A stretch of 64,000 nt of DNA from Euglena gracilis. Lineage: Eukaryota. The stretch is taken from NCBI GenBank assembly GCA_039621445.1, contig CP154954.1:27392123-27456122 (forward strand). The letters run 5' to 3'. Every line of letters begins with the position of its first letter. The first letter of the stretch is position 1. The notes beneath the pieces are model-generated. The model did no database searches and was not told where the DNA came from. It was given only the letters and a program-made list of their open reading frames with translations. The position numbers and the translations under genes are program-made. This document shows positions 885 through 57,845 of the stretch, one piece after another.

Positions 885-3800
885 TCGGCCGTGTACCACT
901 CCGTCGTGGTGGTGGCAACGCAGGCGGTCCTCCTGGCCTGCTCCCTGGCCATGATCCGCTTCACTGACTTGGACCGGCCCGCCCAGGGGGCCGGGGCTGC
1001 CGAGTGGGGTGGGTCACCCTCCCTCCCCTGAATTGCCCAACGGCCGCTTTGCCTCTGGCAGCGGCAGTGAACAAACAACCTGGCAGGGGGGGGGGACAAA
1101 AGGGGTCCTTCCAGTAACCTGGGACTCGGCCAGGCAGCCAAGTTATTTCGGGTTTGGGTGGTATGGGTTTGGGGTGTCGGGTTACATGCCTGCATGCACG
1201 GATCTCCGACGGGTGGGCTGCCTGGGCAACTGAGCGAAGTGCTCTTCTTTTTTTCAAGCTCAGCGAAGGGTGTGTAAGCAAAACCTTGCAGATTTGCTCC
1301 AGAAGAGGGTCTTCGCAATTAAACAAAATTCTTGATTTCATAATAAAACAGCAATGGGTTTTCTCACCATCTCTAGCTGTTTTGTATGGGCCAAAAAAGC
1401 AGCTGGGATGCGTGTGTGTGTGTGTGTGTGTGTGTGTGTGTGTGTGTGTGTGTGTGTGTGTGTGTGTGTGTGTGTGTGTGTGTGTGTGTGTGTGTGTGTG
1501 TGTGTGTGTGTAGGTGCGTGCGTGCGTCCATGCATGTTGTTGGGTGGGGGTAGGTGGTCCCCGCCGTCCCACCTTCCCTCCCCTGCGGCCGTCAGCAGCA
1601 GCCGCTACACCACCGCCAGCCTCATCGCTGCCACGGCGTGGACCCCCGCCTTCATCTCTAACCTCATCTGCCAGCAGCGCGTCGTCCCCCCGAGCCAGGC
1701 CGGCTGCCCAGCCGCCGGTGCCAGCCCCAGCTGAGCAGGCATCTGAGGGGGCCTCCCTGGCGTGAGGAGCCCCCTTGTGACTGCTGCTAATGGCCTTGCT
1801 CCAGTTCCATGTTTTTCTTCCCGTTAGGTTCGGTTCTTTTTCCCCGCCGACGGCTGCCGGGGGCTTTTCGCGTTGCAGGGGGCGTTGGCGTGCGCATCCC
1901 GAGCTTTGGCACCCATCTGGGGAGTGCCGATCTGGCACCATATGGGGTGTGTGCATGAGTGGGTGAACGTGTGTGTGCCTGTAGTAAGCGAATTGCAACC
2001 AATTATGCACGGTTCTATTGTCCTTTTGTGCTTTGGTGCGGTGGTGCCACTATGTGCTGAATTTGATTTTAATGGTACCATTTAGCTCAAACAAATGCTT
2101 GCATTTAAGGTTTTAATGTATATAGTGTTGATATTAATGAATGAGGGGTTAATGTCATTATACCCAAGGTATTTGTAAGCCCCTGGTTAAATATTTGGTC
2201 ACCTGCAGTCGGGCTCTGGGGGGGGGGGGCTTCGTGGGGGATATTTATGGTGGATGATATGGGGTTGATTTATCCTCAAAGGGACAAACCAGCAGTGCTC
2301 TGTCTCTTGAGTGCCTTGAGGAACGATGGCGAAAGAAGGATTTGGGCGAAACAAAAGAATGTATTTTGTATTTTGGTGAACCAAAGTCAAAAGTCGTTAT
2401 CATTTTCATCGTCATCATCGTCGTCGTCGTCATCGTCGCCATCGTCATCGTCATCGTCATCATCGTTGTTGTTCTTGTTTTTGTTGGTGGTGGTGGCGGT
2501 GGTGGTGGCGGTGGTGGTGTTGTTATCATTACTGGTGTTAGCATTAGTATTAGTATTACTACTAGTATTAGTATTAGTATTGGTATTGGTATTGGTATTG
2601 GTATTAGTATTAGTATTAGTATTGCTATTAGTGTTAGTAATAGTGTCAGCATCAGTATCAGTGTCAGTGTCAATATTAGTGCTAGTATTAGTACCATCAC
2701 CAGTACTGGTACTGGTGCTGGTACTAGTACTAAATCCCCCCCTAATAAGTGCGCAGTGCCCTAATTGTGCGCAGTGCCCTAATAAGTGCGCACCCCCAAG
2801 GGTCCGAAACTACCTCCCTAAAAAGTGCGCACCCCTCCTGAAGAGAAATCATTGTCACATCTCAGGTCGGAAAACACAATTCTCAGAACTGTCCTTCTCG
2901 GATCATATATTTCTGTCGTCCAAACCCAAATTTGACACATAATCACTTGACACATAGCTAAAAATCACAAAATAGGGGGAAAATTAAAAAAAGTGGGGGA
3001 AACTATTTTGGGCTTTGCTCTAAAAAGTGTGCAGTGCCCTAATAAGTGCGCACCCCCCGGGTCCGAAACTACGTCCTTAAAATGCGCGCACCCGTGCATT
3101 TATTAGGGAGAGGGGTTAAACCCCCCCCACCTATAAGAAACCCCCCTCTATAAGAAACCCCCACCTATAAGAAACCCTTTGGGCATTTTCGGACCGACGC
3201 CCACCTATAAGAAACCCCCACCTATAAGAAACCCTTGGGGTGCTTTGAACCCAACCACCCCCTTTTTTCTTCGGCGCCGAAGGCGCCGAAGGAAATTTTT
3301 GACCGTTTTTGGCCACTTTTGGTCTTTTGTCGGCTCAAAACTTTTTCGGACATTGAAACCCACCTATAAGAAACCCCCACCTATAAGAAACCCCTCGGGC
3401 CATTTTTTGGAAACCCACCTATAAGAAACGGGTTTCTTATAGGTGGGGGGGGGTTTAGTACAAGTATTAGTATGGTACCACTGAAATTTGCAAATTTACT
3501 GACCTCGTTGGCACAGCAGCCCATTTGGTTGAAATTCATCACACACATCACATATTCACAGTTTGCTTTCCTGGAACGAAGTATCTTTTCTTCACAACAA
3601 AATGCAGCCGCTTGCTCAGTACGTCGTCATCCATCTTCCCATTTCGGTTTACCACACCTTAGCCACACATCCATCGCAATGGAAAATATTCTTTTGGGGG
3701 GGGTATTGTTGGGCAAAGATTTTGTGATTTTTGGGGGAAATTTTGACCCTGAAACCTGTTGTATCCATTTTTGCATATCAGGGTTCACTGCACGTCCCCC

Positions 3801-57845: not shown

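Follow-up and report, generated by a model that had tools for sequence, protein, structure and literature searches.

Why should the nonconventional introns of Euglena be cut 3 nt before and 5 nt after a terminal stem? The question is raised by a stretch of 64,000 nt of Euglena gracilis (the window), in which stem-bounded introns lie among TIR elements that likewise end in CAG...CTG and are flanked by 8-bp target-site duplications (TSDs). It bears on the origin of these introns as well as on the reason for the 3/5-nt spacing. If the spacing reflects a transposon TSD, the splicing system would serve to erase, at the RNA level, transposons inserted into exons, which would explain why nonconventional introns make up 71.8% of the introns of E. 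agilis (PMC12501133).

Much of the background is already in print. The published intron code reads 5'-N3CDG-/-CH'GN5-6|R (Nomura et al. 2025). As judged by spacer mutagenesis and 50-bp synthetic introns, the N3 and N5-6 spacers, a CDG/CHG pair, the stem, and a purine opening the downstream exon suffice for splicing; the code accounts for 61.2% of the nonconventional introns of E. agilis, and junction direct repeats occur in 84.4% of the introns of this species (PMC12501133). An 8-nt direct repeat was described at a newly gained nonconventional intron of E. agilis, intron 4 of gapC in strain ACOI 323, for which the authors proposed double-strand-break repair (PMC4770533, in part). The splicing machinery is thought to be non-spliceosomal, and circular excision products have been reported (cited in PMC11282704 and PMC12501133, in part). 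In addition, conversion of conventional into nonconventional introns has been proposed (PMC3935182, in part). What is published comprises the geometry and the spacer requirement, the idea of a MITE/TSD-like origin, and the finding of an 8-nt repeat in a newly acquired intron; the equation of the TIR with CAG/CTG, the TSD-like junction repeats, and the view of splicing as mitigation of insertions are in print as well. The earlier note on this DNA had remarked that a transposon origin has been suggested in general terms; it is available as a MITE origin with TSD-like junction repeats. An explicit statement that 3+5 equals one 8-bp TSD, or that hAT elements are involved, was not found in the main texts of the open literature searched. 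To this background the window contributes MITE families with 8-bp TSDs and one RNA-verified intron belonging to one such family.

RESULTS

RNA evidence for the introns

The gene at 40079-57845 on the minus strand (AMP-binding/PCP/reductase) contains 11 RNA-supported nonconventional introns and 6 GT-AG introns (Table 1). For the RNA check, reads were mapped to positions 38900-58899 (20 kb) of the window from two probable RNA contig runs (X1 and X2, presumed to be RNA), one declared RNA-seq run (X21), and one DNA run. At least 15 joints were obtained in this segment, and all of the 15 listed had a depth of 0 in the DNA run; the DNA contigs ran through the introns of the gene. The six introns that the earlier note had placed in this segment are real, being confirmed by RNA from the three runs (6/6). 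Five of them were seen directly as joints, with coordinates that agreed within an allowed slide of 0 to 3 nt, and the sixth (40277-41311) was supported by piece arithmetic on X2 contig record 7. GT-AG ends were present at no allowed slide position of the 10 nonconventional joints examined, intron 51717-52288 being read separately. When the RNA-supported introns were taken out, the gene became a single open frame of 758 aa with Pfam domains continuous across the intron junctions; the NAD_binding_4 profile, for instance, ran from positions 59-116 to 119-213 over intron 43465-43828.

The stem-bounded introns of the window are real and belong to the ordinary nonconventional introns of euglenids, a class already known. 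Those with RNA support are present in DNA and removed from RNA, and they lack GT/GC-AG ends; in all 16 introns the downstream exon begins with a purine. Positions +4..+6 pair with -8..-6, which the earlier note had given as the euglenid pattern. For genes A to C, whose putative introns are placed by frame continuity, the one indication from a Pfam search of the exons was a weak match to C2 (E = 0.1).

The geometry was largely as anticipated. All 11 introns listed in the earlier note have the form N3-CAG(CAA)...CTG(TTG)-N5 by sequence, the stem opening after 3 nt with CAG in 10 and CAA in 1 and closing with CTG/TTG followed by 5 nt. That RNA junctions follow the 3+5 rule was borne out by 9 of the 11 RNA-supported introns and contradicted by two, one with 3+4 (or 2+5) and one with 3+6, which give sums of 7 (49206-49537) and 9 (51159-51564). 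Two of the 3+5 introns cannot slide, and therefore their fit is exact. In 4 of the 11 RNA-supported introns the stem opens with CAC, CAA (two), or CAT and not with CAG.

TABLE 1 Nonconventional introns and TIR elements of the window
Feature	Positions	Strand	Spacers and ends	Evidence, flanks, and remarks
Nonconventional intron	40277..41311	-	3+5, CAGGCTGC...GTGGCCTG	X2 contig record 7, piece arithmetic; geometry; contains nested MITEs 40448-41217 and 40541-41076
Nonconventional intron	41425..41644	-	Exact 3+5, non-slidable (AGC CAGA...TCTG GGGGT)	Joint 41424>41645, 3 RNA runs, 0 in DNA run
Nonconventional intron	43465..43828	-	3+5, CAGGGC...GCCCTG	Joint slide 1; NAD_binding_4 continues across
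Nonconventional intron	44043..44389	-	Exact 3+5, non-slidable; stem CAC...GTG	Joint 44042>44390; absent from earlier note's list
Nonconventional intron	49206..49537	-	3+4 (or 2+5), sum 7; CAGGCC...GGCCTG	Joint slide 2
Nonconventional intron = MITE	50578..50698	-	3+5; TIR CAGGGTTCGATG/CATCGAATCCTG	Joint slide 5; 8-mers TGCGGGAG, TGTGGGAG, 7/8
Nonconventional intron	50796..50971	-	3+5, 12-bp stem CAGCCAGTTCTC	Joint slide 3
Nonconventional intron	51159..51564	-	3+6, sum 9; CAAGG...CCTTG	Joint slide 1
Nonconventional intron	51717..52288	-	3+5, CATGG...CCATG	X1 loose ends 51716 and 52288 match far sides; open frame needs removal; not among listed joints
Nonconventional intron	57293..57523	-	3+5, weak stem (CAG...CTG)	Joint slide 2
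Nonconventional intron	57626..57783	-	3+5, CAAGCA...TGCTTG	Joint slide 1
Putative nonconventional intron	981..1590	+	3+5, CAGGGG...CCCCTG	Frame continuity only
Putative nonconventional intron	1706..1861	+	3+5	Frame continuity only
Putative nonconventional intron	19488..20761	+	3+5	Frame continuity only
Putative nonconventional intron	21484..21708	+	3+5	Frame continuity only
Putative nonconventional intron	26661..27007	+	3+5	Frame continuity only
MITE	63..685	.	TIR CAGGGCAGAACGGGAA	Flanks 7/8 (G run)
MITE, CAGGCTTCTTTTTAA family	8619..9050	.		Compound; alternative right end 8942; flanks 6/8
TIR element	9345..10248	.	CATACATCTCT ends	TSD CCCTCAAC, 8/8
MITE	37960..38198	.	TIR CAGGCTTCTTTTTAAG	TSD GGCTGGCA, 8/8
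MITE	39784..40072	.	TIR CAGGGGTTTTTT	TSD TTCTCAGC, 8/8; just 3' of stop codon of gene 40079-57845
MITE, CAGGCTTCTTTTTAAG family	40448..41217	.		Flanks 6/8; interrupted by the nested MITE 40541-41076
Nested MITE	40541..41076	.	19-nt TIR CAGGGATGGATGGGAAGCC	Flanks 7/8
MITE	45741..46114	.	TIR CAGGGTTCGATATAAGGAG	Flanks 7/8; duplicate copy at 60607-60979 has 8/8; TIR family of intron 50578-50698
MITE	47393..48251	.	TIR CAGGGATGTATGGGAAG	Flanks 5/8; 6/8 in duplicate 62245-63116

TIR elements with an 8-bp target duplication

Local MITEs with CAG...CTG ends and 8-bp TSDs, as claimed in the earlier note, are real: the window holds eight independent CAG...CTG TIR elements and one CAT...ATG element, and the 8-bp repeats flanking them match at 5 to 8 of 8 positions. 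The repeat is exactly 8 bp long and abuts the TIR. Of the 88 TIR pairs whose arms measure 11 nt or more, five showed flank identity of at least 7/8 when the flanks abutted the TIR, whereas none of the 88 did so at gaps of 1, 2, 3, 5, or 10 nt, and the count was likewise 0/88 for flank lengths k of 9 to 12. TIRs together with a TSD fixed at 8 bp are what cut-and-paste DNA transposition characteristically leaves. For the nested MITE 40541-41076, the filled site was compared with the empty site preserved in the sister copy 37960-38198. All eight CAG-type MITEs open with CAGG; counted by site, with duplicated copies not collapsed, the TIR ends were CAGGG (6), CAGGC (3), and CATAC (1). Most copies of the TIR elements lie outside exons, within other introns, or nested in one another. 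Metagenome matches to the 19-nt TIR word (2 loci) were discarded, as they represented one unrelated sequence without a mate TIR.

An intron that is a MITE

Intron 50578-50698 is plainly a small transposon with an 8-base target duplication that is excised from RNA, and its membership in a local MITE family is the new observation here. Its TIR, CAGGGTTCGAT, and its subterminal sequence are common to MITE 45741-46114, to which it is linked by a 56-nt subterminal alignment; the TIR word occurs 9 times against 1.25 expected, a number reached in 0 of 100 shuffles. The adjoining 8-mers, TGCGGGAG and TGTGGGAG, match at 7 of 8 positions. The mRNA retains exactly one of them, the element and the other copy being spliced out, and the RNA joint, with a slide of 5, is compatible with a 3+5 cut. 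Since DNA contig X20 record 16 is unbroken through 50578-50698, the removal takes place at the RNA level and does not reflect an element-free allele. In the MFE fold of this intron the terminal stem was unused, and its stability was no better than that of shuffles (z = -0.72). The intron supports the transposon origin already proposed, which the other introns may share.

Flanks of the other introns

The 8-mers flanking the intron stems had been called consistent with decayed TSDs in the earlier note. Its hand count of about 3.5 matches in 8 was reproduced (39/88, mean 3.5/8, for the 11 listed introns; 53/128 for all 16), and the interpretation was not upheld. For the 16 introns, the excess of self over cross identity was 11.8 in register and 11.3, 11.4, and 10.5 off register, i.e., the 8-mers around the stems of the window introns showed no in-register excess over other offsets. 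Because the excess was as high in the wrong registers, it probably arises from shared local composition. A permutation test of the flanking 8-mers gave p = 0.02 for the 16 introns and p = 0.004 when confined to the 14 whose spacers are exactly 3+5, values that are not relied on because the off-register self comparisons were equally high; p was 0.16 for the 11 RNA-supported introns and 0.10 without the MITE-intron 50578-50698. TSD match and TIR identity were not correlated (Spearman -0.01).

A clear TSD was present in only 1 of the 16 introns, the other 15 having no recognizable one, and most introns showed short junction repeats of variable length (slide 0 to 5). Within the 8-mer, position 6 was G in 11/16 introns on both sides, and position 8 was C in 12/16 and 8/16. 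At position 1, C was found in 12/16 right flanks and 4/16 left flanks, an asymmetry that points to splicing constraints and not to a common duplicated origin. The idea that splicing removes the element plus one TSD stands for intron 50578-50698 (7/8) and agrees with the spacer sums of 8 in 9 of 11 introns; the remaining flanks and the sums of 7 and 9 do not bear it out.

DISCUSSION

Origin of the 3+5 geometry

With a probability of roughly 0.6, we favor the reading that nonconventional introns are exonic insertions of CAG...CTG MITEs, removed by a 3+5 cut together with one 8-bp TSD. The terminal stem opens at +4 and closes at -6, and the RNA is cut 3 nt upstream of the stem and 5 nt, occasionally 4 or 6 nt, downstream of it. 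If a non-autonomous CAG...CTG TIR element with its 8-bp TSD, of the kind that is abundant in the same DNA, were to land in an exon, its TIRs would form the intron stem, and the fixed 3+5 cut would take out the element and 8 flanking nt, equal to one TSD copy. Because 3+5 = 8, a single TSD copy would be left and the coding sequence restored, so that the mRNA would return to its pre-insertion state whatever the sequence of the TSD or the orientation of the element. The spacer sum would then be 8 because the TSD is 8, and most other nonconventional introns would have begun as MITEs and subsequently lost their TSD and family identity.

In its widest form the proposal falls somewhat short of an even chance: the 3+5 geometry would be matched to the 8-bp TSD of one CAG...CTG transposon group, the nonconventional introns of Euglena, hundreds of thousands in number, would for the most part be MITE insertions silenced at the RNA level, and the splicing code would in effect be dictated by the length of the TSD. 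Less likely is a bolder form, in which the cutting machinery descends from, or uses, the TIR-recognizing apparatus of the MITEs. Several observations stand against a MITE origin, namely, the single clear TSD among 16 introns, the spacer sums of 7 and 9, the N5-6 of the published code, intron stems more varied than MITE ends, the lack of a transposase in 10 ORFs, and the MFE fold of intron 50578-50698 without a terminal stem.

The first four of these observations also speak for coincidence, an explanation that we consider unlikely. Here, 3 and 5(-6) nt would be merely the distance that the splicing enzyme measures from the helix end, introns would mostly arise in other ways, e.g., by conversion of conventional introns, for which a hypothesis has been published (PMC3935182, in part), and the odd MITE that fits the code would be spliced as a by-product. 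The intron flanks, without register-specific identity and unlike in composition at position 1, are in line with this. However, coincidence would have to account for an agreement in the CAG...CTG ends and in the length of 8 that comes together with a TIR family held in common, for the 8-nt repeat at the youngest published intron (PMC4770533, in part), and for junction repeats in 84.4% of E. agilis introns (PMC12501133).

It is quite improbable that the relationship runs in the reverse direction, with nonconventional introns having acquired mobility, perhaps via the excised circular RNA, and given rise to the TIR elements. The reported circular products (cited in PMC11282704 and PMC12501133, in part) and the lack of a transposase in the 10 window ORFs scanned would suit such a descent, but a fixed 8-bp TSD with TIRs marks cut-and-paste DNA transposition, and the copies are mostly situated outside exons, in other introns, or within one another. 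Very improbable, finally, is a source of the junction repeats in double-strand-break repair at intron gain instead of transposase target duplication: it is the authors' own reading of the E. agilis gapC repeat (PMC4770533, in part) and would suit the short, variable repeats at most introns here, but it does not predict the fixed 8-bp repeat abutting the TIR that the intergenic and intronic MITEs display, and the MITE-intron carries the TIR of the local MITEs.

Comparison with known systems

As for the MITE insertions favored here as the source of the introns, the local elements may be hAT-like. They share with hAT MITEs (Ac/Ds-like) the 8-bp TSD, and their short TIRs, opening with CAG(G), may resemble the Ac end and the hAT consensus. 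In contrast to hAT MITEs, one family here opens with CAGGC and one with CATAC. A Pfam search of 10 long intergenic ORFs of the window found no family and no hAT transposase or dimerization domain. Splicing of Ds in maize is spliceosomal and imperfect (Giroux 1994, cited in PMC3935182, in part), whereas the cut here is measured from the stem. E. gracilis also harbors Merlin elements with 8-bp TSDs (PMC8101967, in part); Merlin identity was rejected for the local elements because, although their TSD length fits the 8 to 9 bp of Merlin, Merlin TIRs end in 5'-GG and the elements here in CAG.

Nothing essential separates the introns of this window from the euglenid nonconventional class (Milanowski et al. 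2013, 2016; Nomura et al. 2025). Here too there are no GT-AG ends, and the +4..+6/-8..-6 stem, the spacers of 3 and 5 to 6 nt, the downstream purine (16/16), and the short direct repeats at the junctions are the same. The opening triplets of four RNA-supported introns (CAC, two CAA, and CAT) do not conform to the CDG that the published code requires.

The introner elements of Micromonas, Aureococcus, Amoebophrya, and Fritillaria are likewise TIR elements inserted in exons with a TSD, and there, as in intron 50578-50698, excision of the element with one TSD copy at the RNA level restores the coding sequence (PMC11282704 and PMC7789003, both in part). Membership among the spliceosomal introners was rejected, since a TIR family and a TSD are present but the intron ends are not GT-AG. 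In Micromonas, the element supplies one splice site and a 3-nt TSD the other, and the repeats of Amoebophrya measure 3 to 5 nt (same sources, in part). Introners are cut by the spliceosome, whereas the introns described here lack splice-site dinucleotides and are cut at a distance measured from the TIR stem, and the repeat is 8 bp.

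Splicing of a MITE with one copy of its target site duplication

The earlier note proposed that the nonconventional introns here have the form N3-CAG...CTG-N5, so that splicing removes an element bounded by terminal inverted repeats (TIRs) plus exactly one 8-bp target site duplication (TSD), 3 + 5 making 8. Direct support was obtained in one case, the 121-nt intron 50578-50698 of the minus-strand AMP-binding/PCP/reductase gene, which was not among the note's examples. The intron has the arms CAGGGTTCGATG and CATCGAATCCTG. The 11-nt TIR word occurs nine times in the window with at most one mismatch (1.25 expected; 0 of 100 shuffles reached nine): at both ends of MITE 45741-46114, in its duplicate, in the element at 52719-55550, at a lone end (8983-8993), and in the intron. 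Past the TIR, 56 nt of the intron align to MITE 45741-46114 with ~71% identity. The 8-mers outside the stem, TGCGGGAG and TGTGGGAG, match at 7 of 8 positions. The DNA contig contains the element, the mRNA retains exactly one 8-mer, and the RNA joint slides over 5 nt, a range that takes in the 3+5 position.

RNA support and geometry of the introns

The introns are real and are members of a known intron class. Four runs supplied the reads mapped to 38900-58899: X1 and X2 (probable RNA contigs), X21 (raw RNA-seq), and X20 (DNA-like). Among the joints listed, 15 of 15 were seen in X1, X2, and X21 and had a depth of 0 in X20, whose contigs (records 12, 13, 16, and 18) span several introns unbroken. 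Six of these joints read CT..AC on the plus strand, i.e., they are GT-AG introns of the minus-strand gene, and the other nine are nonconventional. Piece lengths in X2 contig record 7 (204 + 113 + 43 + 236 nt) imply a tenth such intron, 40277-41311, and loose ends in X1 whose letters match the far sides imply an eleventh, 51717-52288. With the introns removed, one 758-amino-acid frame stays open from 57845 to 42969, with the Pfam domains AMP-binding_C, PP-binding, and NAD_binding_4 along it. Because the NAD_binding_4 profile runs on through successive exons (1-42, 59-116, 119-213, and 207-257), the junctions are right at the protein level too. All six introns that the note had placed within 38900-58899 were confirmed by RNA, inside the slide range; for its five in the other three genes (981-1590, 1706-1861, 19488-20761, 21484-21708, and 26661-27007), the support is frame continuity only.

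Between the last two NAD_binding_4 parts (119-213, then 207-257), at ~42508-43106 on the minus strand, there are three in-frame stops as well as a (CAA)n run. A GTGTGTG start near 43106 hints at an additional conventional intron; it is not among the joints listed, and reads are cut at the repeat 42688-42887. X1 and X2 contigs continue for 255 nt beyond 57846, unlike the window, so a further upstream exon lies elsewhere, outside the mapped stretch.

The proposed geometry was found by sequence in all 11 listed introns, with terminal stems of 3 to 7 perfect pairs opening with CAG (CAA once) and closing with CTG (TTG once). Among the 11 RNA-supported nonconventional introns, 3+5 (nucleotides between the 5' cut and the stem, and between the stem and the 3' cut) is an allowed position in nine, and the fit is exact in 41425-41644 and 44043-44389, which cannot slide. 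The exceptions are 49206-49537 (3+4 or 2+5) and 51159-51564 (3+6). The RNA-supported stems include openings with CAC (44043-44389), CAA (51159-51564 and 57626-57783), and CAT (51717-52288). When the 11 RNA-supported introns and the five in other genes were combined, the first base of the downstream exon was a purine in 16 of 16. The base directly before CAG is C in 12 of these 16, as is the base directly after CTG; this C-C mismatch may mark the helix end.

Local MITEs and their target sites

An inverted-repeat scan with outward extension left 694 candidates after low-complexity filtering, among which the most frequent first triplet was CAG (51 candidates, a count inflated by a CAG microsatellite). 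A stricter set excluded the CAG microsatellite and the large duplication's second copy; its 88 TIR pairs have arms no shorter than 11 nt. Flanks abutting the TIR were identical at 7 or more of 8 positions in five pairs, four of which begin with CAG; none of the 88 reached this level at gaps of 1, 2, 3, 5, or 10 nt, and none did at flank lengths of 9 to 12. For the nested element, sister copies 37960-38198 and 40448-41217 provide an empty and a filled site. On this evidence, the note's description of local MITEs with CAG...CTG ends and 8-bp TSDs holds. Their assignment to hAT is putative.

Clear TIR elements in the window and identity of their flanking 8-mers
Element	Coordinates	Flank identity	Remark
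MITE	63-685	7/8	G run
MITE	8619-9050	6/8	compound
MITE	37960-38198	8/8	
MITE	39784-40072	8/8	TSD TTCTCAGC
MITE	40448-41217	6/8	contains 40541-41076
MITE	40541-41076	7/8	nested
MITE	45741-46114	7/8	8/8 in duplicate copy
MITE	47393-48251	5/8	6/8 in duplicate copy
TIR element	9345-10248	8/8	CAT-ended

MITE 39784-40072 lies directly 3' of the gene's TGA, with the stop codon inside a TSD copy. RNA contig pieces stop exactly at its edge, 40073; it may be either removed from the UTR by splicing or missing from the RNA strain. The 2.8-kb element 52719-55550, lying in a conventional intron, carries CAGGGTTCGAT-family ends and, internally, long inverted repeats (52731-54374 versus 54595-55152); its flanking 8-mers match at only 1 of 8 positions.

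The 64-kb window has a G+C content of ~52%, with microsatellites, G-run/C-run palindromes, and one 13-N gap (58923-58935). Directly after the gap stands a 5-kb copy (58936-64000) of 44049-49132, 96.5 to 97.2% identical, so that what reads as a 14.9-kb tandem repeat may instead have arisen where a contig, allelic or duplicate, was joined into the scaffold. Summed contig depth in X20 ran from tens of thousands to 2.3 × 10^5 in bins 40234-41567, 45570-46236, and 56242-58899, where exons have ~30 to 60; this marks the MITE families as highly repeated in X20, although these depths are not a copy number.

Flanks of the other introns

The 8-mers flanking the stems were compared, anchored on the stems, as self pairs versus cross-pairs. 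The note's hand count was reproduced for its 11 introns (5, 4, 4, 3, 5, 2, 5, 2, 5, 3, and 1; 39/88). Identity was 53/128 for the 16 introns versus 2.58 of 8 for cross-pairs (P = 0.022), 51/112 for the 14 exact 3+5 introns (P = 0.004), and 32/88 for the 11 RNA-supported introns (P = 0.16); with the MITE-intron left out, P was 0.10. The self-over-cross excess was 11.8 in register and 11.3, 11.4, and 10.5 at shifts (1,0), (2,0), and (0,1), with noise further out. Since the off-register excess is as high, it probably reflects local sequence and not the predicted alignment. No correlation was seen among these introns between TSD match and TIR identity (rho = -0.01). The left and right 8-mers share a consensus: position 6 is G in 11/16 on either side, and position 8 is C in 12/16 on the left and 8/16 on the right. 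C at position 1 (12/16 right versus 4/16 left) has an asymmetry that looks like a splicing constraint. The reading of these flanks as decayed TSDs was not supported by the register scan, a test that at n = 16 is weak either way.

The note's model is supported by the agreement in ends, by the agreement in length (8), and by one MITE-intron verified by RNA; the flanks of the other introns do not support it. We put the probability that the 3+5 cut generally removes a TIR element plus one 8-bp TSD at roughly 0.6. The main value of the finding lies in recasting a long-standing question so that it can be put to one simple test across the genome.

Comparison with known systems

The interpretation sharpens a hypothesis that is already in print. 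In the literature searched, with supplements and subscription papers outside its scope, we found neither an explicit equation of 3+5 with one 8-bp TSD of CAG-ended MITEs nor a description of CAG-ended MITE families with 8-bp TSDs in Euglena. MITE-like insertion was proposed as the source, and most junctions were noted to carry direct repeats (Milanowski et al. 2013, PMC3935182). A junction consensus was later given, and eight-nucleotide direct repeats at a newly gained E. agilis gapC intron were read by the authors as a mark of break repair (Milanowski et al. 2016, PMC4770533). A 2024 Mobile DNA review treats CAG/CTG at +4..+6 and -8..-6 as a TIR and the junction repeats as TSD-like (PMC11282704). 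Nomura et al. 2025 (PMC12501133) reported that 84.4% of introns are slidable, that 3 nt is obligatory for the 5' spacer and the 3' spacer, at 5 nt, tolerates +1, and that code-obeying synthetic 50-bp introns are spliced; the machinery was suggested to mitigate transposon insertions. Amoebophrya and Micromonas offer a general precedent for TIR-plus-TSD elements removed as introns (PMC11282704, PMC7789003). E. gracilis Merlin elements have 8-bp TSDs, as do the local MITEs, but end in GG (PMC8101967). Compared with the published N3-CDG code of euglenid nonconventional introns, the CAC-, CAA-, and CAT-opening introns found here fall outside the triplet, whereas their spacing is alike.
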